A stretch of DNA of 38,193 bases from a virus. Lineage: Duplodnaviria; Heunggongvirae; Uroviricota; Caudoviricetes. Made by a program: the position numbers and the translations under genes. The stretch covers positions 89,703 through 127,895 of IMG/VR virus record IMGVR_UViG_3300048586_000134, one strand, 5' to 3'. Each line of letters begins with the position of its first letter. Position 1 is the stretch's first letter. The notes under the pieces are model-generated. The model was not told the origin of the DNA and ran no database searches. It saw only the letters and a list, made by a program, of their open reading frames with translations. Below are positions 3 through 18,057 of the stretch, one piece after another.

Positions 3-989
3 TTGGCAGCGGTTGAGGCCGTCAAGCGTTCGACCGACACCAACGAGATTATCTCCCTGATCAATCAGTATGGACTTCCTCGGGAAGTTCTGCCGACTCA
101 GGCGTTGAATGATCCGAAGGTGTGGGAGGCGCTCCTTTACGCAGGTAAGGGAATGCCGCTGACGGCGCTGGTTCGAAACCTCGGTACGATGTCCAAGATC
201 GGTCTGCTCACGCAGGGTTCGGATGCGTCTCGCTACGTGCTTGACCGTCTGGACGATCAGGATGGACTGCTCAAGTCGAGGATTCACCCAATCGATCTTC
301 TCAAGGCAAAGATGGTGTACGCAAACGGTCAGGGTCTCAAGTCGTCCGCGACGTGGACTCCTGTCCAGCCAGTTGTATACGTGCTTGAGACAGCGTTCTA
401 CAAGTCCTTCGGGAATGTAGAGCCGACCAACAAGCGTCTCTGCCTTGCGCTCGACGTTTCGGGATCGATGACTTCTGGTGAGCGCACTGGCTCATTCGCG
501 TGGTACGGCGCAGGCCGTGAGCCACTTGCGGGTGTTCCAGGGCTGTCTCCACGCATCGCTTCAGGCGCTCTGGCGCTGATTACGGCTCGTACGGAAAGGG
601 ACTACGAAATCTACGGATTTACGACGAACTATCGTCAGCTTAACATCAGCGGCCACGACTCGCTTGAGACGGTGCTGAAGAAGATCAGCGACCTTCCATT
701 CGGCGGAACCGATTGTGCGTTGCCGTTCCGAGAGGCACAGCGACAGAACAAGAAGTTCGATGCCTTTATCGTCTACACGGACTCCGAAACGGGTGGAGGT
801 AACCCTTCTGCCGCGCTTCGCCAGTACCGTGCATCGTCGGGAATCCATGATGCGAAGCTCATCGTGAACGCGATGGAAGCTAACAACTTCTCAATCGCTG
901 ATCCGAGAGACCGTAACATGCTTGACGTGGTTGGATTCGACACGGCTGCACCGCAGATCATGTCTGAGTTCATTCGAGGGGGTATCTAA
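3..989 (+). CDS. rsr: Ro60/TROVE-domain RNA-binding protein (Rsr), 5' part outside window
   Basis: TROVE C-terminus (MPLTALVRNLG, RIHP) then vWA MIDAS DVSGSM, VYTDSET and IADPRDRNMLDVVGFD, typical of Ro60 orthologs. Confidence 0.95.
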   Translation: MAAVEAVKRSTDTNEIISLINQYGLPREVLPTQALNDPKVWEALLYAGKGMPLTALVRNLGTMSKIGLLTQGSDASRYVLDRLDDQDGLLKSRIHPIDLLKAKMVYANGQGLKSSATWTPVQPVVYVLETAFYKSFGNVEPTNKRLCLALDVSGSMTSGERTGSFAWYGAGREPLAGVPGLSPRIASGALALITARTERDYEIYGFTTNYRQLNISGHDSLETVLKKISDLPFGGTDCALPFREAQRQNKKFDAFIVYTDSETGGGNPSAALRQYRASSGIHDAKLIVNAMEANNFSIADPRDRNMLDVVGFDTAAPQIMSEFIRGGI

Positions 990-1010
990 GCCCTAGATGG
1001 AAACTTTCAA

Positions 1011-1075
1011 TCCGCTCGCCGCTACTGTACAGTACGAGGGTAAAACCTCGGAACATGTACGCCAGCGGGAGCGGA
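1011..1075 (+). other. Long hairpin directly after the Ro60 gene
   Basis: TCCGCTC/GAGCGGA, bulged G, CCGCT/AGCGG, GTACA/TGTAC, CGAGG/CCTCG. Confidence 0.6.
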
Positions 1076-1091
1076 CTGAAAGGGAACGAAA

Positions 1092-1508
1092 ATGGCTAGT
1101 TATATCCATGTGAACGCCGAGACCGATGAACAGGTCTCTGATGTTCTCGAACGATTACGTGGATCGGGCGTAGAGGTGGTCCATACGGGTGAAGACAACC
1201 CGATTTATGACGCACTCTTCTACGTTGCACGAATCAATTCAAAACTCGATAATCTTGGACAGCTACGACATCTGCACAAGATTCAAACGTCTCTTCAGAA
1301 GATCGAAGAAGCGCAGAGACAGGTTGGGACGTATTACCATACGCTCAACGTGGAAAAAAGTTACGAACAGGACGAACGCAGAAAATACTATATGGAGCTT
1401 GCTCGCACGTTAGGTGTAAAGCCCCAAATCAACTATCTCTACATGTCTCTCGATGCGATCAAGAGAGCGTTTGCAGCAGAAGTCGGGGCCATGAATGCAG
1501 AGGAGTAA
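1092..1508 (+). CDS. Hypothetical protein
   Basis: 138-aa ORF, AGGGA RBS. Confidence 0.75.
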   Translation: MASYIHVNAETDEQVSDVLERLRGSGVEVVHTGEDNPIYDALFYVARINSKLDNLGQLRHLHKIQTSLQKIEEAQRQVGTYYHTLNVEKSYEQDERRKYYMELARTLGVKPQINYLYMSLDAIKRAFAAEVGAMNAEE

Positions 1509-1510
1509 GC

Positions 1511-1741
1511 ATGAAGGTATTTACCGCGTCGTGGTGTGGACCATGCCAGACATACAAACAACAACTCGATGGGATGGATGTCGAGATTATCGATGTTGAG
1601 GAGAATATTCCTCTGGCAATCGAGTATCAGGCATATTCAGTACCCTTGACGGTTTTCGTCAAAGATGGTATGGTTACGCATAAGGTGAATGGGCCGATTC
1701 CTCGTCAAGAGGTTGAGGCGCTTCGAATGCAATACGAATAA
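1511..1741 (+). CDS. Thioredoxin/glutaredoxin-like protein
   Basis: WCGPC active site, SVP cis-Pro motif, GGAG RBS. Confidence 0.9.
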   Translation: MKVFTASWCGPCQTYKQQLDGMDVEIIDVEENIPLAIEYQAYSVPLTVFVKDGMVTHKVNGPIPRQEVEALRMQYE

Positions 1742-1771
1742 CAATGCGGAGCGTCGAAAGGCGCTCCCTGA

Positions 1772-1846
1772 TGCGGGGTGGCGCAGAGGCAGCGCGTGGG
1801 TCTCATAAGCCCAAGGTCAGTCGTTCGAATCGACTCCCCGCCTCCA
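1772..1846 (+). tRNA. tRNA-Met(CAT), probably initiator
   Basis: Cloverleaf, CAT 1804-1806, 1:72 mismatch, encoded CCA. Confidence 0.9.
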
Positions 1847-1859
1847 AGGAGGAGGAGCA

Positions 1860-2099
1860 ATGGCGGTTATTCTTCAGCTTAACAAGCCACGAAAGGTCAA
1901 CAATCTTCGTTGGCGCGTCACCTGTCATGACTGTGAGTCCTTGATTGGGCTTACGGAAGAGGACAAAAGCTACATTGTTGATGACGCCGATGGGTATGGA
2001 ACTGATCTGACGGTTCGTGTATCATGCTTTCGCTGTCCTGCGTGTCAGGCGGTGAATGTTTTCTCCTTCGATCCAAAACTTGCGGTAAAGATGCGGTAA
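1860..2099 (+). CDS. Small Zn-ribbon protein (paralog 1)
   Basis: CHDC...CPAC, GGAGGAG RBS. Confidence 0.75.
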   Translation: MAVILQLNKPRKVNNLRWRVTCHDCESLIGLTEEDKSYIVDDADGYGTDLTVRVSCFRCPACQAVNVFSFDPKLAVKMR

Positions 2100-2108
2100 G
2101 GAGGGGTA

Positions 2109-2462
2109 ATGAAGGTAAATGATGCAGTCGCCTTGATCGATGTGCTGGCATGGGGTGGAAACTACCCAAAAGAGATACTCAAGATTGCGCGAGAGATTCT
2201 GGTCTGGTATAATGCCTATCTGGAATCTGTCACAATTGGCTCAAGCGGTATTTATCTCTTCTTCTTCAACCGCGAAGCAGACAAAGTTGCTCAGGTTTAC
2301 TTCAGCAGGCTCTTTCCTGAGTCGTACGAAGTTCGTTTCTACGACGTTGGCGCAGGTATTATTCCGAACTCAAAATATGGTAGTTTCAGACTGACGACGA
2401 GTCAGCAATACTGTCACTTGCATAAATTTCTCGATGATGGTATCATTCGGGAGGTGGCATGA
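2109..2462 (+). CDS. Hypothetical protein
   Basis: 117-aa ORF, GGAGG RBS. Confidence 0.75.
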   Translation: MKVNDAVALIDVLAWGGNYPKEILKIAREILVWYNAYLESVTIGSSGIYLFFFNREADKVAQVYFSRLFPESYEVRFYDVGAGIIPNSKYGSFRLTTSQQYCHLHKFLDDGIIREVA

Positions 2463-2674
2463 TGGTCCGCGTGATCAAAGAGGACAAAGAGTTCGAAATC
2501 CGTTGCACGGATTGCCTGCATCTCCTTGCTTACAAGCTCGAAGACATTGAAGATGTCTATGACTACGATTACACTGGTAGTCGAGACTATCTCGGTAAGG
2601 GTATCACATGTCCTGTTTGCCGTGAAAGGCTTGTTATTGGACACAAGAAGGAGGTTCGCCATGAAAATCATTAA
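2459..2674 (+). CDS. Small Zn-ribbon protein (paralog 2)
   Basis: CTDC...CPVC, ATGA overlap with previous gene. Confidence 0.75.
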   Translation: MMVRVIKEDKEFEIRCTDCLHLLAYKLEDIEDVYDYDYTGSRDYLGKGITCPVCRERLVIGHKKEVRHENH

Positions 2675-2930
2675 GCCGTCTCCGTTTGCGGATGAATGGA
2701 CTATGCAGGTTACCTGTCCACGTTGCAAGGCTGTCCTTGAGGTGAACAAAAACGATCTGACTGTCAATTATTACGATGATCAGCGTGAGGGTTCCTACTA
2801 CTCCTGCCATGCGACATGCATCTCCTGTCATCATCTTGTTTCGGTGAATGCGCCGAGAGACTTGCTTGAATATCTCTACAAGACGAGAGGGAACTCGAAT
2901 TCCTCGTCGTCCTACTACGATTATCGATAA
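2661..2930 (+). CDS. Small Zn-ribbon protein (paralog 3)
   Basis: CPRC...CISC; start moved to ATG 2661 behind AAGGAGG. Confidence 0.75.
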   Translation: MKIIKPSPFADEWTMQVTCPRCKAVLEVNKNDLTVNYYDDQREGSYYSCHATCISCHHLVSVNAPRDLLEYLYKTRGNSNSSSSYYDYR

Positions 2931-2938
2931 GTAAATAT

Positions 2939-2964
2939 GGGTCAGTTGTCCGTGGTCGGGCATC
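2939..2964 (+). pseudogene. Orphan 5' fragment of tRNA-Tyr
   Basis: GGGTCAG-TT-GTCCG-TGGT-CGGGC-ATC parallels GGGTCAG-CC-TCCTG-TGGT-CAGGA-ATC at 3366. Confidence 0.7.
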
Positions 2965-2973
2965 GGAGGGAAT

Positions 2974-3366
2974 ATGAGTCTTTTACAGAAGAACACTAGA
3001 AAGCAGGGTGATGCAGGACTTGGACAGGCAATTGCCTATTTTACGTCTCTTGGCTACTCTGTTTCCCTTCCTCTCACCGAGAGTCAGCGTTATGACCTCA
3101 TTGTGGACGACGGAGAGAGTCTAAATCGAGTCGAAGTCAAAACTACGCGGAACAAGAAAAGCGATGCCGCGAGTTTTGTGGTACAACTTGCTACGAATGG
3201 TGGCAACCAAACATGGAACGGAACAATCCGAAAAATCTCCAAACTTGACAGCGACTATGTATTCGTGGTAACATCAGATGGAAGTCGGTATCTCATTCCA
3301 ACCGAACTTCTCGATGGTAAGCAGAATGTGACGCTTACCTCAAAATGGGATGAGTTCAAAATCTAG
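2974..3366 (+). CDS. PD-(D/E)XK putative homing endonuclease
   Basis: GYSVSLP...RYDLIVD...RVEVKT signature; stop overlaps first base of tRNA-Tyr. Confidence 0.85.
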   Translation: MSLLQKNTRKQGDAGLGQAIAYFTSLGYSVSLPLTESQRYDLIVDDGESLNRVEVKTTRNKKSDAASFVVQLATNGGNQTWNGTIRKISKLDSDYVFVVTSDGSRYLIPTELLDGKQNVTLTSKWDEFKI

Positions 3367-3446
3367 GGTCAGCCTCCTGTGGTCAGGAATCCAATCTGTA
3401 AAATTGGCGCTCTTTAGCAATGCAAGTTCGATTCTTGTCTGGCCCA
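3366..3446 (+). tRNA. tRNA-Tyr(GTA)
   Basis: GGGTCAG/CTGGCCC, GTA 3398-3400, variable arm; atypical D arm. Confidence 0.85.
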
Positions 3447-3447
3447 C

Positions 3448-3543
3448 CGCTGAAAGCCGAGGTCACAGGGTTATCCATTGAGGGTCTTACTCGAAAGAGA
3501 TTACTGTCACGCATCTCCCTACGACGACGACTTGCTGGAAGCG
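3448..3543 (+). ncRNA. Y RNA-like #1
   Basis: AGC[C]GA pairs with TTGCT; 8 nt then GGTTATC; upper stem GTCacAGGG/CCCTacGAC; T-tract follows. Confidence 0.8.
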
Positions 3544-3571
3544 TTTTTCTGTTATCATGGGGGTGGTTACC

Positions 3572-3715
3572 ATGTTGGAGGTGTTACTTGCCGTTAATCT
3601 GGTCTTGTTGATCAGACTCTATATCGGCCTAATAAGACACGAGAAAAAGACCGCCGAAATGACGGAGAAGATCGATGCGTTGGTGTACAGCGTTGCGAAT
3701 CTTCTGAACAAGTAA
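3572..3715 (+). CDS. Small membrane protein (47 aa)
   Basis: MLEVLLAVNLVLLIRLYIG...; below ORF-track cutoff. Confidence 0.55.
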   Translation: MLEVLLAVNLVLLIRLYIGLIRHEKKTAEMTEKIDALVYSVANLLNK

Positions 3716-3727
3716 AAGGAGAGGAAG

Positions 3728-4339
3728 ATGACATTCGCGATTGATCAACTCTTTACGACGTGGTGGGAGTTTTTTGGGGTCATAACGGGCATTCTGAGCG
3801 TGGCGTTCCTGCTACCGACGAAACACCCTCGACTTCAATACCTGAATTGGCCTGCGGGTGTCATGACAGCGGCAATCTACACGTACATCTTCACCGAATG
3901 GGAGTTGTACGGTAACGCCGCATTACAAGTCTATTTCGTGCTCGTTTGTCTGGTTGGTGCGTGGACATGGAGAGGGCAGTTGCGGGGTCTCGTCAGTGAC
4001 GTTCCCGAAATTCCCATCACGACCTGTCCGTGGTCTGAAGTCTGGAAAGCAGGACTCTTTGCTCTGGCTATCTCGATTCCGATCATCGGCGTACTTACCC
4101 TGACAAATGACGCGCATCCAATTCCAGATGGTGCGATGGTTGCTCTGTCAGCCGCCGCAATCTGGCTTCAACTCAAGAAATACGTTCAGTCGTGGTTCTT
4201 CTGGATCGCGGTTGATTGTATTGCCATTCCGCTACACGCCTCCCAAGGTTTAGGCGCAACCGCAGCACTCTATGCTATTTACATGGCAATGTGCTTCGTT
4301 GGTTACAGACAGTGGGCGAAAGAAGCGGCAAATGGCTAA
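3728..4339 (+). CDS. pnuC: Nicotinamide riboside transporter PnuC
   Basis: Polytopic membrane protein with LNWPAG, YGNAALQVYF, WFFWIAVD motifs; next to nadR. Confidence 0.9.
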   Translation: MTFAIDQLFTTWWEFFGVITGILSVAFLLPTKHPRLQYLNWPAGVMTAAIYTYIFTEWELYGNAALQVYFVLVCLVGAWTWRGQLRGLVSDVPEIPITTCPWSEVWKAGLFALAISIPIIGVLTLTNDAHPIPDGAMVALSAAAIWLQLKKYVQSWFFWIAVDCIAIPLHASQGLGATAALYAIYMAMCFVGYRQWAKEAANG

Positions 4340-4829
4340 CATTATTCTCTTAAGAGGAACCCCGCTAAGTGGGAAAACGACCTTTGCTCAGAAAGCTGTG
4401 CTTGAGAGCAACGGTACATTAAAACTGGTCTCGAAGGACGCCTTAAGGCATATGTGTGACACCGATAATCGATTTGGTAACACACAGGCAAAAGAATACA
4501 CCGAACTTCGAGACCAGCTAATCTCCTTCTGGACTAAGCGCTTCTATAATGTGATCGTAGATGAGACCTTTGCGCGATTCGAAGATATTTACGAGGTTCG
4601 TAAGAAATTCATCTTTGACTCGCCTTGGAATATGTGCACCATTTACGACATGCCGCTCCTGTCACTAGACGAGCTAATTGACCGTGATCGTGAACGGGCA
4701 GAGCGCATTGGGCGTCGAATCGGTGCCGAAGAGTTAGCCGAGTATCATCGGCTCATTACGGAGTGGCCGACGAGGAAGTATCCTTCGTGGGAAAACCAAC
4801 GCCGCTGGGAGGAGGAGAAACATGTTTAA
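4332..4829 (+). CDS. P-loop kinase, T4 Pnk kinase-domain-like (AAA_33)
   Basis: IILLRGTPLSGKTT, VSKDALR, VIVDET; start set at ATG 4332. Confidence 0.75.
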   Translation: MANIILLRGTPLSGKTTFAQKAVLESNGTLKLVSKDALRHMCDTDNRFGNTQAKEYTELRDQLISFWTKRFYNVIVDETFARFEDIYEVRKKFIFDSPWNMCTIYDMPLLSLDELIDRDRERAERIGRRIGAEELAEYHRLITEWPTRKYPSWENQRRWEEEKHV

Positions 4830-5877
4830 GCATGGGATTGTTGCAGGGAAATTCTGGCCGCTGCACAAGGGACATGACGCCCTCATTCGTACAGCCTTGC
4901 GGCAGTGCGAACGCGTCACCGTCTTTGTGGTTTGGCTTGGCGATCAGGAACCAAGTGGTTTGACGCGTCAGGCATGGGTGCAAGCTGCCTATCCGCAAGC
5001 AGATGTACGACTTGTGGTGGATATCTGTACTGATGATAACCATCCAGACTCGTCAGTGACGTGGGCTGAGTACACGAAGGACATTCTCGAAGGCGATCTT
5101 CCCGATGCGGTCTTCTCGTCTGAGCCGTACGGAACATGGTGGGCTGCAAATATGGGAGCGCAGCACGTTCAGGTCAACCTGAATCGTAGCTACTTCCCGA
5201 TTAGTGGAACCATGATACGAAGTGATCCATATAAGTACTTTCACTACATCCATCCGATTGCGCGTGCGTACTACAACAAGCGCGTTCTCGTGGTAGGTGC
5301 TGAATCGACAGGCAAGACAACGCTATGCGCTGATCTTGCAATCGACTACTCTACGGTCTTTGTGCCTGAGTATGGTCGTATCTATGTCGAGAACAAGGCA
5401 TCTCGCGATGGTGTTGATGAGCGTGCCTGTTTTGGCGAAATCGTGAATCGACAGCTTCGTATGGAAGAAGAATATCTGAAAGACGCAAATCGCGTCCTTT
5501 TCTGCGACACTGATCTTTTCACAACGTCTCTCTGGTGGGAGCGTTGGATGGGAACGGGCTATGACCGTCTCTGGAATACGATTCAGACGATGGGGATCGA
5601 GCATGCGCATAAATATGATCTTGTACTCGTGATGGATCATGAAGGAACCGAGTGGGTTGATGACGGATTCCGCGATCAGCGTGATACGCGTGCGTGGTTT
5701 ACGGAGAACCTTGAAAACTTCTTCCGTTCGGTTGTTGTAAAAGAGTTCTACCCGACAGATGAGCGTCCACTCAATGTGGTCAAGCTGTCTGGCTCATGGG
5801 AAGAGCGTCACAAGACGGCGATTGCCGCTGTGAACGAGATTTTCGGTCAAACGGAGGCATTGCTTCCAAGGAGTTAA
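4822..5877 (+). CDS. nadR: NadR-like bifunctional NMN adenylyltransferase / ribosylnicotinamide kinase
   Basis: GKFWPLHKGH, ISGTMIR, GAESTGKTT, EYGR, FCDTD. Confidence 0.92.
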   Translation: MFKHGIVAGKFWPLHKGHDALIRTALRQCERVTVFVVWLGDQEPSGLTRQAWVQAAYPQADVRLVVDICTDDNHPDSSVTWAEYTKDILEGDLPDAVFSSEPYGTWWAANMGAQHVQVNLNRSYFPISGTMIRSDPYKYFHYIHPIARAYYNKRVLVVGAESTGKTTLCADLAIDYSTVFVPEYGRIYVENKASRDGVDERACFGEIVNRQLRMEEEYLKDANRVLFCDTDLFTTSLWWERWMGTGYDRLWNTIQTMGIEHAHKYDLVLVMDHEGTEWVDDGFRDQRDTRAWFTENLENFFRSVVVKEFYPTDERPLNVVKLSGSWEERHKTAIAAVNEIFGQTEALLPRS

Positions 5878-5881
5878 CACT

Positions 5882-5941
5882 ATGTATATCGGCATTGGTA
5901 CACTACTCATCATTATCATTCTGCTCATTCTTCTTTTCTAG
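5882..5941 (+). CDS. 19-aa hydrophobic micropeptide
   Basis: MYIGIGTLLIIIILLILLF; AAGGAG RBS 8 nt upstream. Confidence 0.55.
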   Translation: MYIGIGTLLIIIILLILLF

Positions 5942-5961
5942 GAGGCTTCGCGCCTCCATCT

Positions 5962-6034
5962 GCCGCGTAAGCTATTGTGGAACAGCAGCCGACTTTTAAT
6001 CGGCAGACGGCGGGTTCGATGCCTGCACGCGGTA
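5962..6034 (+). tRNA. tRNA-Lys(TTT)
   Basis: GCCGA-CTTTTAA-TCGGC, TTT 5995-5997. Confidence 0.88.
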
Positions 6035-6048
6035 CAGGGATTTTGCGT

Positions 6049-6375
6049 ATGGTGAACAAGACACGAATACGATCTGAGCTAAAGTCATGGTTTTACACAC
6101 TCAAGAGTCAATGTGCCTGTGTAGACTGTGGAGAAGCGCATCCAGCGTGTCTTGATTTCCATCACCGTAATCCTCGACATAAGGTTATGTCTGTCTCTGA
6201 GATGGTGAACCTGTGTTTTTCAAAGGACGACATTATTACAGAGATTATGAAATGTGATTCGCTGTGTGCGAATTGCCACCGAAAGCGGCATTGGGCCGAA
6301 GGAGGTTATTATGGAAAACGACATTCAACGCGTCGAGGTAGACGTGATCTACGTGCTTCGGAACAACGATGGTGA
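6049..6375 (+). CDS. HNH endonuclease (family A)
   Basis: CVDC...LDFHHR...KCDSLCANCHRKRH; start moved to ATG 6049, after the tRNA. Confidence 0.85.
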   Translation: MVNKTRIRSELKSWFYTLKSQCACVDCGEAHPACLDFHHRNPRHKVMSVSEMVNLCFSKDDIITEIMKCDSLCANCHRKRHWAEGGYYGKRHSTRRGRRDLRASEQRW

Positions 6376-6538
6376 TCTGTTCACGAAGTCAGAGTTGACA
6401 CGGAATACCTTCGTCGGGTATCTTACGGTAGACGCAGCGAGACGAGCGCGTGCGCATGCCAATAAAGTCGGGTATAATCCGCCATTCGAGATTGTACCAA
6501 TCCAAGTTTCGTCACTAGGCTTCACCCAAGAAGTCTAG
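6311..6538 (+). CDS. Hypothetical protein
   Basis: GGAGG RBS, 75 aa. Confidence 0.7.
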   Translation: MENDIQRVEVDVIYVLRNNDGDLFTKSELTRNTFVGYLTVDAARRARAHANKVGYNPPFEIVPIQVSSLGFTQEV

Positions 6539-6539
6539 A

Positions 6540-6577
6540 TGTCGCCAAAATCAAACGTATCGCATATGATAGTATGT
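6540..6577 (+). promoter_or_regulatory. Repeated sigma70-like promoter, copy 1
   Basis: TCGCCA 6542-6547, 17 nt, TATGAT 6565-6570; same motif at 10993 and 16734. Confidence 0.8.
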
Positions 6578-6584
6578 GATACAT

Positions 6585-6655: not shown

Positions 6656-6659
6656 CTAT

Positions 6660-11105: not shown

Positions 11106-11143
11106 CTGAGCGCTTTGCTCGCGGGTCAAACGAAGGAGGCTGC

Positions 11144-11353: not shown

Positions 11354-11374
11354 TCAGCCGAGAAGGGAGTGCGA

Positions 11375-11620
11375 ATGCGAAGAATTCGAAACTTCTTTGT
11401 GGCAATTGTCGCAGCGGTGATGCTGGTTATCGGAGGTTTGGCAGTTACGACTCCTGACTCCGCTTCAGCGCATACGTATGTAGCAGGAGTCAGTTGCGGA
11501 TCGAGCGTCAGTCCGTCGAGCGGACAGATCAAGATCGGCTATCACTATGGCAGTGAGCCGTGGCATCGCTTTTATTGGCGAACGATGACGGCTGGTGAAT
11601 ACTGGACATATTGTTGGTAA
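11375..11620 (+). CDS. Small secreted peptide B
   Basis: Signal peptide ending ASA-H; 49-aa mature part with 2 Cys. Confidence 0.78.
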   Translation: MRRIRNFFVAIVAAVMLVIGGLAVTTPDSASAHTYVAGVSCGSSVSPSSGQIKIGYHYGSEPWHRFYWRTMTAGEYWTYCW

Positions 11621-11688
11621 GGTAAGTGGTTCGGCTTTGTGCGTGAGGCAACATGTAAGTAAGGTAACACACTCCTGATCCGAACTAA

Positions 11689-11764
11689 CGCGGCGGGGCG
11701 GTACAGAATCGCGTCGGTCTCATAAGCCGATCAAAGTCGGGGCAGTTCCGACCGTACGCAACCA
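11689..11764 (+). tRNA. Atypical initiator-like tRNA-Met(CAT)
   Basis: C1:A72 mismatch, CAT 11721-11723, CCA; T loop GGCAGTT and a bulged acceptor base are atypical. Confidence 0.65.
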
Positions 11765-11943
11765 TTCTCGGGTAGCGCCTGAGACGTGAGCGCAAGGCAG
11801 CACGTAGAAAACCTGCCTATCTTTGATGGGGCGAGATTAATAAACCATCCGTGAGGGGCGGTAACACAGAACCTCGGGACTCTACGTAAACGAGTTAGCA
11901 GTCTAGGCTGCGGGGAAAGGAAGTCATGAGCCTTTCCCTTCAT

Positions 11944-12019
11944 GGGCGTAGTAGCTCAATGGGAGAGCACCTGTTTTGCACGCAGGGGGTTGAGGGTTCG
12001 AATCCCTTCTGGTCCACCA
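11944..12019 (+). tRNA. tRNA-Ala(TGC)
   Basis: G3-U70, TGC 11977-11979, CCA; one bulged nt in the acceptor. Confidence 0.87.
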
Positions 12020-12134
12020 AGTAAGCCGATTGGGTAAGCGTTATCTTATTACTTGAAACAATAAACGAGCAAGGTTCGAATCCTGCACTTGGGTTGGTAT
12101 CCCTAATTTCGCTTCCCGCCCTTTGCTTATCTTG
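12020..12134 (+). ncRNA. Y RNA-like #6
   Basis: TAAGC[C]GA/TTGCTTA; GGGtAAGCG/CGCTTCCC; TTATC; TTATT-aCTTGAAAc-AATAA and GGTTCGAATCC T arm. Confidence 0.85.
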
Positions 12135-12155
12135 ACTTTCTTGGAAGGAGGTTGT

Positions 12156-12359
12156 ATGATTGAGAACGACGACCAGCGAGCAATCACAGCGTATTGGGTT
12201 AAGCTGTTTCTAGATCGTGCAAGCACTGCTCAAGAACAGTACAAAGACGATCCAGCGTTTGCCAAAGAACTTATGAATTCGTACACTGGCATGGCGAACA
12301 CACTAGAGGAGGAAGTGATCGACTATGACGAACGAAAAACTCGTCAAATGGGGGATTAG
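12156..12359 (+). CDS. Hypothetical protein
   Basis: AAGGAGG RBS; stop at tRNA-Ala positions 8-10. Confidence 0.72.
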   Translation: MIENDDQRAITAYWVKLFLDRASTAQEQYKDDPAFAKELMNSYTGMANTLEEEVIDYDERKTRQMGD

Positions 12360-12420
12360 TGCTAAGGGGAACACATTGGTTTTGCAATCCAAAATTAAGG
12401 GTTCGAGTCCCTTATCCTCC
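12350..12420 (+). tRNA. tRNA-Ala(TGC), second copy
   Basis: G3-U70, TGC 12382-12384. Confidence 0.87.
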
Positions 12421-12435
12421 ACCGACAATTGAATA

Positions 12436-12507
12436 CGGTTCCGTAGTGTTAGCGGCAGCACATCTGTTTGAAGCACAGCCAGCTTCGGTTCGAATCCGAA
12501 CGGGACC
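12436..12507 (+). tRNA. tRNA-Phe(GAA)
   Basis: GAA 12469-12471. Confidence 0.9.
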
Positions 12508-12617
12508 ACAGTAGCCAAGCGCCTCTCCCGATCCTCACTGGTCGGTGAAGCAATTCGGGCTGGAAAGACGGATGCATACGGTGAGCCAGCAGTTCTGTTC
12601 GGACTCAATCGAACACA

Positions 12618-12689
12618 TGGGCGGTAGTGTAAAGTGCACGCCTCTCCTGAAAGCAGAGGAAGATGGAGGAGCAATACCTCTTCCGCCCA
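12618..12689 (+). tRNA. Atypical tRNA-Phe(GAA)-like element
   Basis: GGGCGG/CCGCCC, CCTCT/AGAGG around CTGAAAG; T loop AGCAATA is non-canonical. Confidence 0.55.
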
Positions 12690-12691
12690 CT

Positions 12692-12858
12692 AACGATAAG
12701 CCGCTTGGGTATGGGTTATCCGCATACATTTTGATGAGTGCTATCAAAAGCTCTCCGAGGAGTCGGAGGTAAAACAATACTACAAAGCCGCAGGAAGGGG
12801 CGCGATTCCTGAGTTCGGTGCACAGCGCAATCTCCCATCCCGCCTTTTGCTTATTGTT
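12692..12858 (+). ncRNA. Y RNA-like #7 (longest)
   Basis: AACGATAAGC[C]G/TTGCTTATTGTT; ATGGG/CCCAT; GGTTATC; internal TTTTGAT/ATCAAAA and CTCCG/CGGAG hairpins. Confidence 0.82.
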
Positions 12859-12884
12859 CCTTTTCTAATTAAAGGGGTCACGAC

Positions 12885-12971
12885 ATGGACGACAATGTGA
12901 TTATTCTTGGTTTCGTTATCTCGGTGTTCGTATTTGTCATCCTAAGACCAAGCAAGAAGGAGGAAGAATAG
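12885..12971 (+). CDS. 28-aa membrane micropeptide
   Basis: MDDNVIILGFVISVFVFVILRP... Confidence 0.5.
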   Translation: MDDNVIILGFVISVFVFVILRPSKKEEE

Positions 12972-13183
12972 TGTATTCTGTTCTGGTCGTGATCGAAAAT
13001 GACGCAGGCGAGCAAGTCCGACAGTACACCCTTGGTGTCTATCAGGAAGAGGCTCGCGATTTTCTTTGTCGGGTAGGAGAAGACTTTGACGCTGGTCGTC
13101 TTCGTTTTGGAAGCGATCAGGAGATTCTTGACTTGTACGAGGGGATCGATTATACTGTACGGGGAATTAGCGCAGATGGTTAG
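12971..13183 (+). CDS. Hypothetical protein
   Basis: GGAGG RBS, GTG start; stop in the tRNA-Val D loop. Confidence 0.7.
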   Translation: MYSVLVVIENDAGEQVRQYTLGVYQEEARDFLCRVGEDFDAGRLRFGSDQEILDLYEGIDYTVRGISADG

Positions 13184-13234
13184 CGCGTCACGTTGACATC
13201 GTGAAGGTCACTGGTTCGAGTCCAGTATTTCCCA
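13161..13234 (+). tRNA. tRNA-Val(GAC)
   Basis: GAC 13195-13197. Confidence 0.93.
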
Positions 13235-13236
13235 CT

Positions 13237-13346
13237 AAGGGCCGAGAGTAATCCGTTATCAGTTACCAGGGCACAGCCCATTCAATGCGGACCAGACGAA
13301 CCGCAACCCTTTCGCGAGGGATTAACGGATACTGCCCCTTGCCCTT
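13237..13346 (+). ncRNA. Y RNA-like #8
   Basis: AAGGGC[C]GA/TTGCCCTT; AGTaATCCGTT/AACGGATACT; three internal hairpins. Confidence 0.85.
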
Positions 13347-13350
13347 TCAT

Positions 13351-13427
13351 GCACGATAAGTCAACTGGTTGTGGACGCCATGCTGATAACGTGGTTTAGA
13401 GTGGTTCGACTCCACTATCGTGTACCA
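13351..13427 (+). tRNA. tRNA-Ile(GAT)
   Basis: GAT 13385-13387, encoded CCA. Confidence 0.92.
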
Positions 13428-13494
13428 TGAGGCCGAAGTTAATGGGTTATCTTCTGCAACCTTGGAATAAATGCCCATAACGTGTCTTGCCTCA
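13428..13494 (+). ncRNA. Y RNA-like #9 (minimal, 67 nt)
   Basis: TGAGGC[C]GA/TTGCCTCA; GTTaATGGG/CCCATAAC; GGTTATC; T-tract. Confidence 0.85.
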
Positions 13495-13519
13495 GTTTTC
13501 TTTCACGAAAGGGGCGGTG

Positions 13520-13723
13520 ATGAAGATTCGTAAGGATCGCTATGAACATCGTGAAGTTTTGAAAGAAGACGCCAATCGACATAATAATAGAATGGCGCAA
13601 CATCCACAAGTCGGTCGTCAGATTGACGAAGAAGCGTTTCAGCGAGAGGAATTACAGGATGAAGACCATGATTATGAAATTTGGCTCAGTGGCGGCAGCG
13701 TTCGCGTTTGCTATTATCAATAA
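13520..13723 (+). CDS. Hypothetical protein
   Basis: AAGGGG RBS, ATG 13520. Confidence 0.6.
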   Translation: MKIRKDRYEHREVLKEDANRHNNRMAQHPQVGRQIDEEAFQREELQDEDHDYEIWLSGGSVRVCYYQ

Positions 13724-13742
13724 CATCCGCTAAGGCGGAAAT

Positions 13743-13819
13743 GCCTGAGTAGCTCAGTTGGTCAGAGCGATGCACTCGTAACGCATAGGTCGCGGGTTCG
13801 AATCCCGCCTTTGGCTCCA
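13743..13819 (+). tRNA. tRNA-Thr(CGT)
   Basis: CGT 13777-13779, encoded CCA. Confidence 0.93.
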
Positions 13820-13820
13820 T

Positions 13821-13892
13821 GCTCCCTTCGCCAAGCGGAAAGGCATCGGGTTTACATTCCGACATGCGGCGGTTCGATTCCGTCAGGGAGCA
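13821..13892 (+). tRNA. tRNA-Val(TAC)
   Basis: TAC 13853-13855. Confidence 0.9.
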
Positions 13893-13904
13893 CTGAGGAG
13901 GATT

Positions 13905-14141
13905 GTGATGAAGGCGCATAAAGTTGATGAATTCACAATTCTCGGTCGTAACTTTTACGGTAGACGCTTACGTTGTCCAAAATGCGGACATTGGGACGTA
14001 CATTTCCATCCCAATAACGATTATTTCTTCGTCTGTAAGAAGAGGAAGAAATACAAGTACTACAATGGGTGTGGTTATCTAGGTCCGATCCATGAGTTTC
14101 GGGGTGAAGTCAAGCGAAACGGAAAATGGTTCAAATTGTAG
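13905..14141 (+). CDS. Small Cys-containing hypothetical protein
   Basis: CPKC...C...C, GAGGAGG RBS. Confidence 0.7.
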   Translation: MMKAHKVDEFTILGRNFYGRRLRCPKCGHWDVHFHPNNDYFFVCKKRKKYKYYNGCGYLGPIHEFRGEVKRNGKWFKL

Positions 14142-14168
14142 CGAGAGGAGTACGCAGGATGGTGAGTT

Positions 14169-14264
14169 ATGAACACAAACCCAAACGGCGTACGGATCAT
14201 TCGTCGCCCGAACGGTCAAATTATCATTGTTCGTGCCGATGACAAAAAGGAGAAACCAAAATGA
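14169..14264 (+). CDS. 31-aa hypothetical protein
   Basis: ATG 14169, ATGA overlap with next ORF. Confidence 0.45.
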   Translation: MNTNPNGVRIIRRPNGQIIIVRADDKKEKPK

Positions 14265-14518
14265 GAGCAATCTGGTATTCGTGTAGTCAGTGTGGCAACA
14301 CTGGCGCAACGGTTTTTGGTCCGTGCTCGTGTATCTTCGGACAGGCGCTTCGAGCGTCGTGGGGATGCTGTGGCGGATATTGTGGATGTAATCGAGTAAT
14401 CTATCGCACCTACACGTCGAATCGAAGTGATGGTCCGATCCTGCCGAAGCAGCGTCGAGACTATCAGGCTGAGGAAGCAGAGCGAACGAGAAAGTTCATG
14501 GAGAGACACTACGAATAG
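14261..14518 (+). CDS. Cys-rich hypothetical protein
   Basis: AAGGAG RBS, CSQC...CSC...CCGGYCGC. Confidence 0.65.
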   Translation: MRAIWYSCSQCGNTGATVFGPCSCIFGQALRASWGCCGGYCGCNRVIYRTYTSNRSDGPILPKQRRDYQAEEAERTRKFMERHYE

Positions 14519-14528
14519 TGTCTCAAAT

Positions 14529-14600
14529 GCAGCCGTGGTGAAAGGGATATCATAAGAGCGTGCGAAGTTCTTGTTTCGCGTTCGAATCGCGACGGTTGTA
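14529..14600 (+). tRNA. tRNA-Arg(GCG)
   Basis: AGAGC-GTGCGAA-GTTCT, GCG 14562-14564. Confidence 0.82.
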
Positions 14601-14612
14601 CTAGGAGGGAGG

Positions 14613-14840
14613 ATGAAAGTATTCTACGGTCCTGCAAAAGACAAGCCAAAGGATACCTTCTATGCTGAGATAGTTGCTGTACAAGAAGGCAGTAACTACT
14701 ATGGTAAAGCATGGACTGATGTTGAAATCGCCGTCAGGCGGAATCATCACACGGTCCATCACGAAATACTACGTGTTGATCAAGCGCCACCGCAAGCGCT
14801 CGTTCACACAGAGAAGAAACTGCGGAGCATTCCGCTGTAG
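14613..14840 (+). CDS. Hypothetical protein
   Basis: GGAGGGAGG RBS, ATG 14613. Confidence 0.72.
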   Translation: MKVFYGPAKDKPKDTFYAEIVAVQEGSNYYGKAWTDVEIAVRRNHHTVHHEILRVDQAPPQALVHTEKKLRSIPL

Positions 14841-14851
14841 GAGGAGGAGAC

Positions 14852-15124
14852 ATGACGCCGATTGTTGCCGTTCAATGGTTCGAGAGCGAGCGAGGATGGG
14901 GTATTCGCCCTGATGGGTGGTCGATCCACAAGACGACTGCCGACGCTGAAGATTTCATCAATGACTACAAGGCGAAATACCATACGGCTCCGACTGCACC
15001 AGATACGTATTCGTTTCCTGATGCGCAGAAGGTGATCGATTCCAGTGCTGTACCACAGGAGTATCTCGATCAGCTTGAAGAGGCTCCTCATGGAACGTGG
15101 GTTCCTCAGCGTCACATTCAGTGA
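14852..15124 (+). CDS. Hypothetical protein
   Basis: GGAGGAGG RBS; WFESERGWGIRPDG motif. Confidence 0.78.
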   Translation: MTPIVAVQWFESERGWGIRPDGWSIHKTTADAEDFINDYKAKYHTAPTAPDTYSFPDAQKVIDSSAVPQEYLDQLEEAPHGTWVPQRHIQ

Positions 15125-15132
15125 CGCACAAT

Positions 15133-15205
15133 GCTCCTATGGTCTAACGGATAGGGCAAAGGTGTTCTAAGCCTTAAGGTGCGAGTTCGAATCTTGCTAG
15201 GAGCG
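15133..15205 (+). tRNA. tRNA-Arg(TCT)
   Basis: TCT 15166-15168. Confidence 0.92.
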
Positions 15206-15337
15206 CAGGGCGTAAGACAGCCCCGCCGAGTGTACATGTGGCAAATGTCTGGCGAGGATCAGGTCATCTGCTCCCGCGCAACCTGCGTAAGTGGTTGGCT
15301 TTTCGCCCCGACGTTAGGCTGTAAACATCAGGGCTAG

Positions 15338-15409
15338 GCTACGGTGGCTCAACGGTAGAGCAAGACTTTTGTAAAGTCTAGGTTGCGGGTTCGAATCCTG
15401 TTCGTAGCT
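15338..15409 (+). tRNA. tRNA-Thr(TGT)
   Basis: TGT 15370-15372. Confidence 0.92.
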
Positions 15410-15579
15410 CTGAGGCTTAACCTCACAGGATATAGCCACACTTCCTGCCGCAAAGTACACGCGGAAACGTGATTGGATGTCGGTCTCAGGCAATGACCGA
15501 TACGCTTTGATTGCTACAGTATCAACGTGCAACCTGCGACAGTGGTTGGTTGAGGGGGATTAGCTACAGTCCCCTACCC

Positions 15580-15655
15580 GCATCCTTAGTTCATCTGGTA
15601 GAATCTCTCTTTGGTATAGAGAAGGTGCGCGGTTCGAGTCCGCGAGGGTGCTCCA
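15580..15655 (+). tRNA. tRNA-Thr(GGT)
   Basis: GGT 15613-15615, encoded CCA. Confidence 0.92.
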
Positions 15656-15692
15656 CATATCGAGTATTGTCATAAAAAGAAAAGGAGGGACA

Positions 15693-16694
15693 ATGACCGC
15701 AGACCAAAACTATATCAATCACGTCGTTCTCGTCATGGATGCGTCATCCTCGATGAGTCATCTGACGAACCAAGTCGTTCAGGTTGCTGACCAGCAGGCA
15801 GCATATCTGGCACAGCGTTCGAAAGAGCTTGATCAGGAGACACGCATGACGGTATACACTTTTAGTGACAACACGCAATGTGTGTATTATGACAAGGACG
15901 TGTTGCGTCTGCCGTCATTGAAAGGTAAGTATCGAGCTTCTGGTATGACCGCGCTCGTGGATGCCACGCTTCGCGCAGTCGAAGACCTTGAGAAAACCGC
16001 AACACTTTACGGGGATCACGCTTTCCTGATCTACGTTCTCACGGATGGACAGGAGAACGCCAGTGGTTCACATCCGTCCACACTGTCAAATAAGCTGTCT
16101 CGACTGCCCGACAACTGGACTGTGGCCGTGATGGTTCCTGACCAGAACGGTGTCTTCGAAGCCAAGAAGTTTGGTTTCGCGCCAAACAACATTGCTATTT
16201 GGGATACATCGGTCAAGGGTATTGGTGAAGTTTCCGAGACAATCAAGCGTGCCACTGATAATTACATGGTTGCGCGTGCCTCTGGACTTCGCTCTACGCA
16301 GAACATTTTCAGCCTTGATGCGTCGTCATTGCAACAAGCTGCACAAACTGGTGCACTGACTTCCTTGAAAGGTCATCAATACCGTTCTTACCCTGTCGAA
16401 CGCGAAGCGCAAATCTCCGCGTTTGTCGAGTGGAAGACAGGTATTCCGTACAAGATTGGTACTGCTTTCTATCAGCTTTCGAAGCGTGAGACCATTCAAC
16501 CGCAGAAGCAGATTGCTGTTCGTGACCGACGTACCTATGATTTGTACACTGGTCCGAATGCGAGACAGCTTCTCAAGCTGCCTGATTATGAGGTGCGGGT
16601 CTCGCCTATCGATCATCCTGACTACGATATCTTTGTTCAGTCCACAAGTGTGAATCGCAAGTTGGTTCCTGGGACTGAAGTTATTCTCTTGTAA
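15693..16694 (+). CDS. vWA-domain protein with C-terminal extra domain
   Basis: HVVLVMDASSSM (MIDAS DxSxS), GMTALVDA, VLTDGQEN; ATG 15693 behind AAGGAGG. Confidence 0.88.
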   Translation: MTADQNYINHVVLVMDASSSMSHLTNQVVQVADQQAAYLAQRSKELDQETRMTVYTFSDNTQCVYYDKDVLRLPSLKGKYRASGMTALVDATLRAVEDLEKTATLYGDHAFLIYVLTDGQENASGSHPSTLSNKLSRLPDNWTVAVMVPDQNGVFEAKKFGFAPNNIAIWDTSVKGIGEVSETIKRATDNYMVARASGLRSTQNIFSLDASSLQQAAQTGALTSLKGHQYRSYPVEREAQISAFVEWKTGIPYKIGTAFYQLSKRETIQPQKQIAVRDRRTYDLYTGPNARQLLKLPDYEVRVSPIDHPDYDIFVQSTSVNRKLVPGTEVILL

Positions 16695-16700
16695 TGCTAG

Positions 16701-16733
16701 CGAAAGCCTCTCTGCTGGTCGGAGAGGCTTTCG
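16701..16733 (+). terminator. 12-bp inverted repeat after the vWA gene
   Basis: CGAAAGCCTCTC/GAGAGGCTTTCG; no clear U-tract. Confidence 0.5.
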
Positions 16734-16771
16734 TGTCGCCAAAATTCGATCAACCGCATATGATAGTGTGT
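16734..16771 (+). promoter_or_regulatory. Repeated sigma70-like promoter, copy 3
   Basis: TCGCCA 16736-16741, 17 nt, TATGAT 16759-16764. Confidence 0.8.
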
Positions 16772-16773
16772 AA

Positions 16774-16844
16774 GCAGGTAAGATGTTATGGCCGCATGGT
16801 TGCCTTCCAAGCAAATCGTCGGAGTTCGATTCTCCGTACCTGCA
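16774..16844 (+). tRNA. tRNA-Gly(TCC)
   Basis: TCC 16806-16808; weak D arm. Confidence 0.82.
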
Positions 16845-16953
16845 CTGACGTTTGATGGTGCACCATCAAATATCCCTTGTATCACATGGTCCCGCTGTGG
16901 TACAATGGCTTTGTTCGCCTTCACCTACGAACAAGGTAGGGTGAGCGGGACTT

Positions 16954-17026
16954 GAAGGTGTGGTGAAGTGGTAAACACGGTGGTCTGCAAAACCTCCATA
17001 CAGCGGTTCGAATCCGCTCACCTTCT
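16954..17026 (+). tRNA. tRNA-Cys(GCA)
   Basis: GCA 16987-16989, U73. Confidence 0.92.
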
Positions 17027-17163
17027 CTAACGAATGTGTGCGCGAGTCGCGCCGAGGTAAGGTGTAGAACCCCATATCGTATCGTGTCAAGCGACGGCAT
17101 TGTACGTGTGGATAACTTCGTGGCCGATGCCAAGGAAAACGCGCACACGTTCGCTTTCTTTTT

Positions 17164-17206
17164 GCAGGATTAAGCTAGTGGTAAACTGGTACATTGCCAA
17201 TGTACA
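17164..17206 (+). pseudogene. Orphan 5' half of tRNA-Gly(GCC)
   Basis: GCAGGAT, D arm, GTACA-TTGCCAA-TGTAC; no T arm follows. Confidence 0.78.
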
Positions 17207-17252
17207 CCCGCTAGCTTCTACATACAAGCACCATTAACAACGGAGGTTAGAA

Positions 17253-17693
17253 ATGGGCAATACCAATCAGCGCAAGGCTGAAACACTAGGCATGCCTCAC
17301 GGCACGGCCAACAACAAATTGCGAAAGCAACTGCTATTTAAATACGTGCGCAAGGCAGGAGAACACTATTGTTTCAAGTGCGGTGCGGAAATTGAGTCAG
17401 TTGACGATCTTTCCGTTGAACACAAAGAGGCGTGGGAAGGGATATCTGCTGATCTATTTTGGGATTTAGATAACATTGCTTTTAGTCATCTCTCGTGTAA
17501 CAGACCTAACACAAACGGAGGAGCATTCAAGGTAACAAGGAACTTCAACTCTCTCATGAAATGGTGTCCTTCTTGCGAGACCTATGTGGGGAAAGAAGAT
17601 TTCAACAAGAATGCGAATCGCAAAGACGGATTGGCTGATTACTGCAAATCCTGTCACAGAAAAAAGAAAATGCAGCGGTCATTCAAGGGCTAG
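17253..17693 (+). CDS. HNH endonuclease with C-terminal Zn module (family C)
   Basis: CFKC...LSVEHK...LDNIAFSHLSCN; CPSC...CKSC; last codons encode the tRNA-Gly 5' end. Confidence 0.85.
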   Translation: MGNTNQRKAETLGMPHGTANNKLRKQLLFKYVRKAGEHYCFKCGAEIESVDDLSVEHKEAWEGISADLFWDLDNIAFSHLSCNRPNTNGGAFKVTRNFNSLMKWCPSCETYVGKEDFNKNANRKDGLADYCKSCHRKKKMQRSFKG

Positions 17694-17746
17694 GATACAC
17701 GCTTGCCAAGTGTGATATACGGGTTCGAATCCCGTTCGCTGCACCA
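17672..17746 (+). tRNA. tRNA-Gly(GCC)
   Basis: GCAGCGG/TCGCTGC, CTTGCCAA loop region, encoded CCA. Confidence 0.9.
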
Positions 17747-17850
17747 GTCAAGCCGTTGGTAATCGGTTATCAGATTCAATCCTCTGGCAACTAGGGTAGT
17801 TCCTACTGCTTTGCGCGAAAGCGCTTTCCGATTCCGTTTTTGCTCGACTG
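17747..17850 (+). ncRNA. Y RNA-like #10
   Basis: GTCaAGC[C]G/TTGCTcGAC; AATCGG/CCGATT; GGTTATC; GCGC-GAAA-GCGC hairpin. Confidence 0.82.
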
Positions 17851-17854
17851 TCTC

Positions 17855-17927
17855 GCAGATGTAGGCTAAATGGCAGGCCGCTTCTCTCTCAAGGAAGTGC
17901 GTGCGAGTTCGACTCTCGTCATCTGTA
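17855..17927 (+). tRNA. tRNA-Glu(CTC)
   Basis: CTC 17888-17890. Confidence 0.88.
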
Positions 17928-17929
17928 CT

Positions 17930-18057
17930 AATGTTGGTCGATTGTTGTAGGTTATCTTATTATTCCGCCAAAACTTAGGGACAACGGTGTTAGGGCACGC
18001 TTCGGGTATTTCCGATGAGGTTAAGAACTTCACCCTACGACGCAACTTACTAACATT
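17930..18057 (+). ncRNA. Y RNA-like #11
   Basis: AATGTTGGT[C]GA/TTACTAACATT; GTTGTAGG/CCTACGAC; GGTTATC. Confidence 0.82.

Follow-up and report, generated by a model that had tools for sequence, protein, structure and literature searches.

A Ro60 gene and eleven Y RNA-like elements in a phage tRNA array

The stretch of DNA analysed here (38,193 nt, called the window from here on) is the last 38 kb of a phage record from IMG/VR (IMGVR_UViG_3300048586_000134, positions 89703-127895, + strand), and all positions are given in the window unless they are marked as genome positions. The record is complete, with 127,895 bp and direct terminal repeats, and the G+C content of the window is 50%. Megablast of window positions 1-18100 against 50,697 GenBank phages gave no nucleotide match, so the phage has no close cultured relative. 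The window opens with part of a gene for Ro60 (Rsr/TROVE) and contains 40 tRNA genes, all of them on the + strand according to ARAGORN. Eleven elements, called Y1 to Y11, lie among these tRNAs, and the analysis deals with their structure, their relation to Y RNAs and their possible role. The features are collected in Table 1.

The Ro60 gene starts before the window and is preceded by a good ribosome site. Its product was aligned to Rsr from Deinococcus radiodurans (PDB 2nvo) with an E-value of 3e-109, residues 13-550 being covered, human and Xenopus Ro60 match it at about 1e-102, and it has an intact MIDAS motif (DVSGSM). Judged by its sequence, the phage protein is a canonical Ro60 (TROVE plus a Ro60-type vWA domain) and not a distant look-alike. 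An earlier note on this DNA had placed a Ro60 gene upstream of the elements and on their strand, and this canonical gene stands there, 2.4 kb before Y1. A second vWA-domain protein is encoded further along the array (Table 1).

The earlier note had also described eleven elements of one architecture, and all of them were found again on the + strand at the starts it gave. Their ends form a terminal stem of 6-10 bp, whose sequence is different in every copy and which is interrupted in Y1, Y2 and Y10. The last pair of this stem is C-G in 10 copies and U-A in Y11, and it is followed in each of the eleven by one unpaired C and then by a G facing U. The next pair is A-U in 8/11 (the exceptions are Y5, Y7 and Y10), and past this position come an internal loop, a second helix with the final pairs GG/CC or CG/CG, and UUAYC. 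The G-U and A-U counts agree with those reported before, as does the spacing to (G/C)GTTAYC, with 8 nt everywhere except in Y6 and Y7, where it is 9 nt. The four-base blocks that had been quoted as covarying were likewise correct, with one mismatch each in Y1 and Y10 within that 4-bp block, and the 5' strand of human Y4 quoted there agrees with the Rfam Y_RNA consensus (GGUCCgA, 8 nt, GGUUAu).

Outside this shared part, called here the handle, the bodies of the elements vary. Y3 and Y4 are full tRNA mimics of the YrlA type, Y2, Y5 and Y6 have only a T-arm-like hairpin, and the bodies of Y1, Y7, Y8, Y10 and Y11 are unrelated hairpins; nothing tRNA-like was seen in Y1 or in Y7-Y11. An origin of the bodies by copying from the neighbouring tRNA was considered and rejected: local alignment against all 40 tRNAs gave generic T-loop matches only, and Y3 and tRNA-Pro have just 7 nt in common.

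Table 1. Positions of the Ro60 gene, the Y elements and other features (window positions unless stated otherwise; R1, score with the covariance model of the following section; z, folding z-score)
Feature	Position	Strand	Description
Ro60 (Rsr/TROVE), C-terminal 328 aa	3-989	+	Pfam vWA_Ro60 3e-52, TROVE 3e-19
Full Ro60 gene	genome 89036-90691		551 aa; start 666 nt upstream of the window
Y1	3448-3543	+	Directly behind tRNA-Tyr; without tRNA-like body; U5 tail
Y2	7340-7490	+	0 nt after tRNA-Leu(cag); T-arm-like hairpin and two further hairpins; R1 34.4 bits, z -2.7
Y3	8483-8610	+	2 nt after tRNA-Pro; YrlA-type; body order T arm, 7-bp acceptor-like stem, D arm; R1 62.7 bits, z -3.1
Y3 acceptor-like stem	8542-8562		CCTCCCG / CGGGAGG, 7 bp, loop ACCAT
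Y4	10115-10248	+	1 nt after tRNA-Gln(ctg), 3 nt before tRNA-Asn; YrlA-type
Y5	10863-10982	+	0 nt after tRNA-Asp (CCA encoded); T-arm-like hairpin with 8-nt loop; U-rich tail; R1 72.5 bits, z -3.1
Y6	12020-12132	+	0 nt after tRNA-Ala; body contains GGTTCGAATCC T-loop; R1 72.9 bits
Promoter-like site	12132-12160		Begins at the 3' end of Y6
Degenerate tRNA-like fold	12619-12689	+	Directly upstream of Y7; Rfam tRNA 21.9 bits, E 1.6; cloverleaf-like minimum free energy fold with oversized anticodon-type loop, not called by ARAGORN
Y7	12692-12858	+	Longest copy; 10-bp terminal stem; U-rich tail; R1 65.3 bits
Y8	13237-13346	+	1 nt after tRNA-Val(gac), 4 nt before tRNA-Ile(gat); three hairpins, none tRNA-like; R1 63.2 bits, z -3.1
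Y9	13428-13494	+	67 nt; 0 nt after tRNA-Ile(gat); minimal, two helices and loop, almost no body; U-rich tail; R1 49.8 bits, z -2.4
Y10	17747-17848	+	0 nt after tRNA-Gly(gcc), 6 nt before tRNA-Glu(ctc); R1 67.6 bits, z -2.4
Y11	17930-18057	+	1 nt after tRNA-Glu(ctc); U-rich tail; R1 64.4 bits
RNase P RNA-like gene	6732-7176	+	Rfam RNaseP_bact_a 58.2 bits, E 1e-15, model positions 1-367
Second vWA-domain protein	15648-16694	+	348 aa; Pfam VWA 2e-5; between tRNA-Thr and tRNA-Gly
PD-(D/E)XK nuclease gene and two HNH endonuclease genes	2974-3366, 7639-8058, 17253-17693	+	Among tRNAs and Y elements
PnuC-type transporter family	3728-4339	+	Pfam match; nicotinamide mononucleotide (NMN) transporter family
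AAA_33/zeta-type kinase	4272-4829	+	Pfam match
AAA_28 protein	4822-5877	+	Pfam match, plus weak cytidylyltransferase-like match
Promoter-like site	10995-11023		Shortly before the tmRNA-like domain
tmRNA-like tRNA domain	11033-11108	+	Rfam tmRNA 46 bits, gathering score 47
Open reading frame	24958-34782	+	Single frame of 3274 aa
Y-like elements of Streptomyces phage Gilson	Gilson 17682-18305 and about 19104-19235		Handle GGGTCGG...GTTATC...ATCC; upstream of annotated RNA-binding (Ro-like) protein gene

Structure, Rfam matches and relatives in other phages

Single-sequence minimum free energy folding, with no model imposed, was applied to ten copies, Y7 being too long for this set. The terminal stem paired both ends in 10/10, and z-scores of -2 or lower against dinucleotide shuffles were obtained in 8/10, the exceptions being Y1 and Y6. 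MAFFT alone misaligned the 3' strands of Y1, Y4 and Y8, and therefore a covariance model (R1), as had been proposed in the earlier note, was built on nine copies with a hand-set structure of 14 pairs, Y1 and Y4 being held out. R1 recovered the held-out Y4 with 39.5 bits (E 2e-7) and the held-out Y1 weakly. It found no further copy in the window or in the rest of the 127,895-bp genome, and it gave no match to the 29 tRNAs without such an element, so R1 is not a tRNA detector.

The complementary ends were also searched for directly. Looked for element by element, the partner search is too permissive (5-70% of shuffles reach the observed value), and a 6-bp partner is not discriminating, as a 6/6 partner also exists for 4/12 chance motif matches in other parts of the genome. 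The joint count is informative: 8/11 partners are perfect, a result reached by 0/2000 shuffles. The loose motif [CT]CG-N8-11-GTTAYC was discarded as a detector, since it gave 12 further + strand matches in the genome and none was supported by the covariance model; one of them, at window position 25121, falls inside the 3274-aa open reading frame.

Regarding other phages, eleven IMG/VR loci encode Ro60 proteins that are 38-46% identical to the phage Ro60. R1 matches were found in the IMG/VR phages L004-L010 and L013, on the Ro60 strand only and within about 1.5 kb of Ro60. The L007 and L008 types present 5-8 tandem copies directly upstream of Ro60, L006, L012 and L005 show clusters of 3-5 motif sites, some with a complementary 3' partner, and L004 shows one. 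In several phages these arrays adjoin Ro60 with no tRNAs nearby. In L008 the array of seven Y copies is followed, before Ro60 starts, by a non-coding GC-rich stretch of about 400 nt (9440-9850, +), which ends in a strong stem and a T-run and may be another structured RNA.

Two further phages carry the family among tRNAs. The Ro60 gene of the cultured Streptomyces phage Gilson (L014) is located in the middle of a tRNA array, where at least four copies that lack annotation are interspersed with the tRNAs, at most 2.2 kb upstream of Ro60; one Gilson element, inspected by eye, has a full T arm, an acceptor-like stem and a D arm and starts right after tRNA-Ile. A whole-genome search of the jumbo phage G001 (462 kb, from which L004 comes) found at least ten copies inside a 54-tRNA array, which is about 117 kb from Ro60 and on the same strand, the Ro60 proteins being 45% identical. 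Most G001 copies have textbook YrlA bodies, their handle is nearly as in the 128-kb phage, and four of them are flush between two tRNAs. This array (L018, G001:C1:172001-192000, - strand) comprises 54 tRNA calls in 20 kb. Within L018, a tRNA with a CUA (amber-reading) anticodon is found at 13829-13902, and the ARAGORN call of a tRNA-Ser(tga) at 18407-18483 overlaps the 5' half of a Y element at 18349-18477 and is probably a miscall of the tRNA-like body of that element.

Co-occurrence with Ro60 genes, which the earlier note had suggested looking for, is thus seen in IMG/VR loci, Gilson and G001. Its remark that one or two Y RNAs are usual per Rsr locus fits the published cases consulted (PMC4201824, PMC12135203), but not the uncultivated phages analysed here, where arrays of 3-10 are common. 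In an alignment of 34 elements from 7 phage records, whose counts are descriptive and not P-values because it was fitted to the model structure and the paralogs and phages are related, pairing cells amount to 92.1% versus 33-44% with the 3' partners slid by 1-3 columns, two-sided changes occur in 13/14 pairs, G-U is present in 34/34 and the C-G before the bulge in 33/34. Covariation of the paired positions is seen across these 34 members, as it is in a smaller alignment of 25 sequences. These comparisons of sequences support the view that the eleven belong to a single family of structured RNAs carrying the helix by which Y RNAs dock onto Ro60.

The elements were scored against the Rfam Y RNA and YrlA models too, as the earlier note had advised, and matches were obtained for Y3, Y4 and Y11, all below the gathering score. 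The YrlA model (RF02553, gathering score 69) aligned end to end with Y3 (34.2 bits) and Y4 (28.1 bits), and the metazoan Y_RNA model (RF00019, gathering score 38), which is built on metazoan sequences, aligned with Y11 end to end through both helices at 26 bits. The handle of Y11, UGGU-C-GA / UU-ACUA, is the nearest of the eleven to metazoan Y RNAs. YrlA-like matches just upstream of Ro60 were also seen in Gordonia phage Cashline (42.2 bits) and Mycobacterium phage Alice (37.4 bits), again under the gathering score of 69; YrlA RNAs have been reported in mycobacteriophages, the group to which Alice belongs (PMC4201824). A YrlA match at genome 52529-52630 (24.1 bits) was dismissed as chance, as it has no handle, no covariance model match and no tRNA nearby.

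Phage Ro60 and phage Y RNAs are known from 22 phages in Chen et al. 2014 (PMC4201824). YrlA is marked by a GNCGAA-type motif (GNCGAAN0-1G) close to its 5' end, by a YUAY with which the variable region begins, and by a tRNA-like body in the order (V), T arm, acceptor-like stem, D arm (PMC4201824). Like YrlA and YrlB with Rsr, the elements described here are encoded on the Ro60 strand (11/11) and have GNCG near the 5' end (11/11) followed by YUAY (UUAU or UUAC, 11/11). Y3 and Y4, the only copies with a complete tRNA-like domain, have the T arm, acceptor-like stem and D arm of YrlA, and the copies without a tRNA-like body resemble YrlB. Moreover, the 7-bp acceptor-like stem of Y3 is a feature shared with YrlA from Mycobacterium smegmatis, where it has been linked to RNase P cleavage (PMC4201824). 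Unlike in YrlA, only the GNCG of GNCGAA is invariant; the following base is A in 8/11 and GNCGAA is complete in Y9 only. There are eleven copies in contrast to the two confirmed per bacterium, although D. radiodurans encodes further small RNAs near rsr (PMC4201824). Conservation extends to both helix strands, of which only the 5' one can still be recognised in Salmonella and M. smegmatis (PMC4201824), and the copies are spread across 14.6 kb of tRNA array instead of lying within 4 kb of Ro60, a distance within which only Y1 is found.

With metazoan Y RNAs (RF00019) and with Yrn1 and Yrn2 the elements share the bulged-C terminal helix, the G-U and A-U pairs, the internal loop, the second helix ending in GG, UUAUC, the 8-nt spacing and, in most copies, a U-rich 3' tail. 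Unlike metazoan Y RNAs, the phage copies cannot be products of RNA polymerase III and several carry tRNA-like bodies, and a repeat of one tRNA and one Y RNA has been described neither for metazoan Y RNAs nor for Yrn1 and Yrn2. The D. radiodurans transcript in which Yrn2, tRNA-Asp and Yrn1 form one precursor is the only published linkage of a tRNA and a Y RNA that was found in the literature (PMC4201824).

Among phages, the Thermus phage phiLo also has a phage Ro60 with more than one phage Y-like RNA, and in vitro Ro60 binding and assembly with host PNPase have been shown for its Yrl1 and Yrl2 (PMC12135203). The layouts differ: the two RNAs of phiLo lie immediately upstream of its Ro60 gene, and the eleven described here are interleaved with tRNAs. 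In Bas63 (Felix O1-type), the Ro60-type gene gp130 heads the phage tRNA array as well, and without it the phage became sensitive to the Ppl defence system; it was guessed in that study that some 'tRNAs' might be Y RNAs, none being defined (bioRxiv 10.1101/2024.10.10.617714). The Ro60 likeness of gp130 is one of structure only, in contrast to the canonical TROVE plus vWA_Ro60 protein of this phage. In the searchable literature, which does not cover the per-phage counts in the supplement of Chen et al. 2014, no description was found of a Y RNA array this large, of a layout of one tRNA and one Y RNA, or of a phage handle this near the metazoan consensus.

Biogenesis, function and alternative explanations

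Ten of the eleven copies begin 0-2 nt past the 3' end of a tRNA, whether CCA is encoded or not, and Y7 follows the degenerate tRNA-like fold. This adjacency was overlooked by the earlier note and points to how the RNAs are made. Y4, Y8 and Y10 also stop 3-6 nt short of the next tRNA, which results in the runs tRNA-Gln-Y4-tRNA-Asn, tRNA-Val-Y8-tRNA-Ile-Y9 and tRNA-Gly-Y10-tRNA-Glu-Y11. The first 8 flanking nucleotides on the 3' side contain 4-6 T in the copies without a following tRNA and 2-3 T otherwise, and there are promoter-like sites that start just past Y5, just past Y6 and immediately ahead of tRNA-Val(gac).

Because each gene is located directly behind a tRNA or a tRNA-like fold, the Y RNAs are probably co-transcribed with the tRNAs and freed by tRNA-end processing. 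The 5' end of each Y RNA would be set by 3' maturation of the upstream tRNA, and the 3' end of Y4, Y8 and Y10 by RNase P cutting at the next tRNA; in most of the others, the terminal stem and the U-tract could serve as the end or as a terminator. If RNase P cut Y3 at its acceptor-like stem, the 5' fragment would finish with ...ACCA, and in M. smegmatis YrlA is cut by RNase P at the equivalent site and CCA is then added (PMC4201824). The array itself contains an RNase P RNA-like gene flush after tRNA-His, with a score below the gathering score of 100, which may take part in the processing of the tRNA-Y RNA precursor. A phage-encoded RNase P RNA would be unusual.

Taken as a whole, we consider with a probability of about 80% that the eleven elements are paralogous Y RNA genes whose paired ends dock onto the phage's own canonical Ro60 ring and which are probably released by tRNA processing. 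The docking site would consist of the helix, the C-G pair, the single bulged C, the G-U pair and usually an A-U pair, and this common handle would load every copy onto Ro60. The differing bodies could then provide the Ro60 particle with different partners or with different gating; published Y RNAs gate Ro60 and tether PNPase (PMC4201824; phiLo, PMC12135203). The sequences show the family, its covarying structure, its place beside tRNAs and its co-occurrence with Ro60, whereas expression, processing, Ro60 binding and any effector role of the elements are inferred. The accumulation of Yrn1 and Yrn2 in D. radiodurans depends on Ro60. That the bodies are a library of distinct effector modules is an unproven proposal, which fits their differences; the tethering of RNases or repair enzymes and the sponging of anti-phage effectors, which the earlier note had put forward, are speculative as well. 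The likeliest task would be to handle tRNA, or other RNA with structure, in the infected cell, our best guess because this phage and two others all have such elements placed in tRNA arrays. A broader idea, which we hold only tentatively and regard as rather doubtful, is that large phages, from 128-kb siphovirus-like to 462-kb jumbo phages, have a tRNA-punctuated Y RNA library with one handle and one Ro60, in which each body would direct the Ro60 particle to a different host factor or RNA for combinatorial tRNA surveillance or counter-defence.

Several observations weigh against the docking of Y RNAs onto Ro60. The phage is known from metagenomic sequence alone, every Rfam match to a Y family is below the gathering score and 8/11 copies have no Y match at all, and the counts from the 34-element alignment carry the limits given above. 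Y1 is weak (R1 12.5 bits, E 0.4; z -0.7), with three purine-purine mismatches in its stem, and Y6 has a z-score of -0.4. Ten of the eleven copies are 6.3-17 kb downstream of Ro60, beyond the limit of 4 kb in Chen et al. 2014. R1 gave no match in Microbacterium phage Magritte, which has Ro60 inside an array of about 30 tRNAs, or in L003 and L011, where the family is either lacking or diverged. Furthermore, RtcB, a gene the earlier note had advised looking for, has no match in the phage genome, and neither do Rnl2 and the CCA-adding enzyme, PNPase not having been searched for, so any such repair partner would be host-encoded; Rnl1 had no match either, a negative that is uninformative since the Rnl1 control matched nowhere.

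The presence of tRNA-like arms in 5/11 bodies, together with the location of all copies in a tRNA array, 10/11 of them more than 6 kb from Ro60 (and about 117 kb in G001), could also mean that the RNAs are tRNA mimics or structured decoys that act without Ro60, for example by sponging host tRNA-targeting nucleases or tRNA-modifying enzymes, the handle serving for stability or processing. Nevertheless, six copies have no tRNA-like part, Y9 is essentially only a handle, and the arrays of several phages adjoin Ro60 with no tRNAs nearby. What is conserved coincides exactly with the helix that docks onto Ro60 in the Rfam Y_RNA consensus, which makes an action independent of Ro60 less likely, and we consider this explanation improbable.

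The elements might instead be mere spacers or terminators of the tRNA operons, stable stems at which transcription stops or which steer the 3' maturation of tRNAs, with no function as free RNAs. Each copy is indeed behind a tRNA, a run with at least 5 T in 8 nt comes after seven of them, and promoter-like sites begin just past Y5 and Y6. A terminator scan, however, calls none of the eleven. Y4, Y8 and Y10 are followed by a same-strand tRNA within 3-6 nt, so transcription must read through them, and 29/40 window tRNAs do without such an element. A terminator also has no need for the invariant bulged C, the G-U pair, the second helix or GUUAYC, which are kept in 34 copies from 7 phage records, including tRNA-free arrays; this role is thus very improbable. 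The nuclease genes scattered in the array and the pseudo-tRNA before Y7 would suit repeats that act at the DNA level, either mobile elements aimed at the 3' ends of tRNAs or duplicated tRNAs that have decayed, and without a function as RNA. We give this hardly any weight, as only about 20 conserved nucleotides are common to the copies, all copies are on the transcribed strand, and their matches to the 40 tRNAs are the generic T-loop ones; the stems differ yet stay complementary, which indicates selection on RNA pairing and not recent copying.

Y RNAs are not yet well understood in any organism. If the elements are indeed Y RNAs of the phage Ro60, they would offer eleven natural variants with one docking helix and different bodies, to which the unrelated G001 adds at least ten more, and both phages could be seen as a natural experiment on the role of the variable half of Y RNAs. 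The handle is nearer to the human Y RNA consensus than the handles of Salmonella or Mycobacterium, a likeness that bears on whether the pair of Ro60 and Y RNA is ancient or has been moved around by phages. The strict placement after tRNAs suggests a simple route of biogenesis and a functional tie of Ro60 particles to phage tRNA sets, which could connect to tRNA-targeting phage defence. Regarding annotation, a whole class of RNA genes inside tRNA arrays is missed in large phages.

Other genes of the array

Additional genes lie among the tRNAs (Table 1). The tmRNA-like match covers just 76 nt, the mRNA-like part not being seen. The block at 3728-5877, with its PnuC-type transporter, kinase and AAA_28 genes, may be a set for the salvage of nicotinamide adenine dinucleotide. 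Finally, the PD-(D/E)XK and HNH nuclease genes of the array are probably selfish genes of the homing type.

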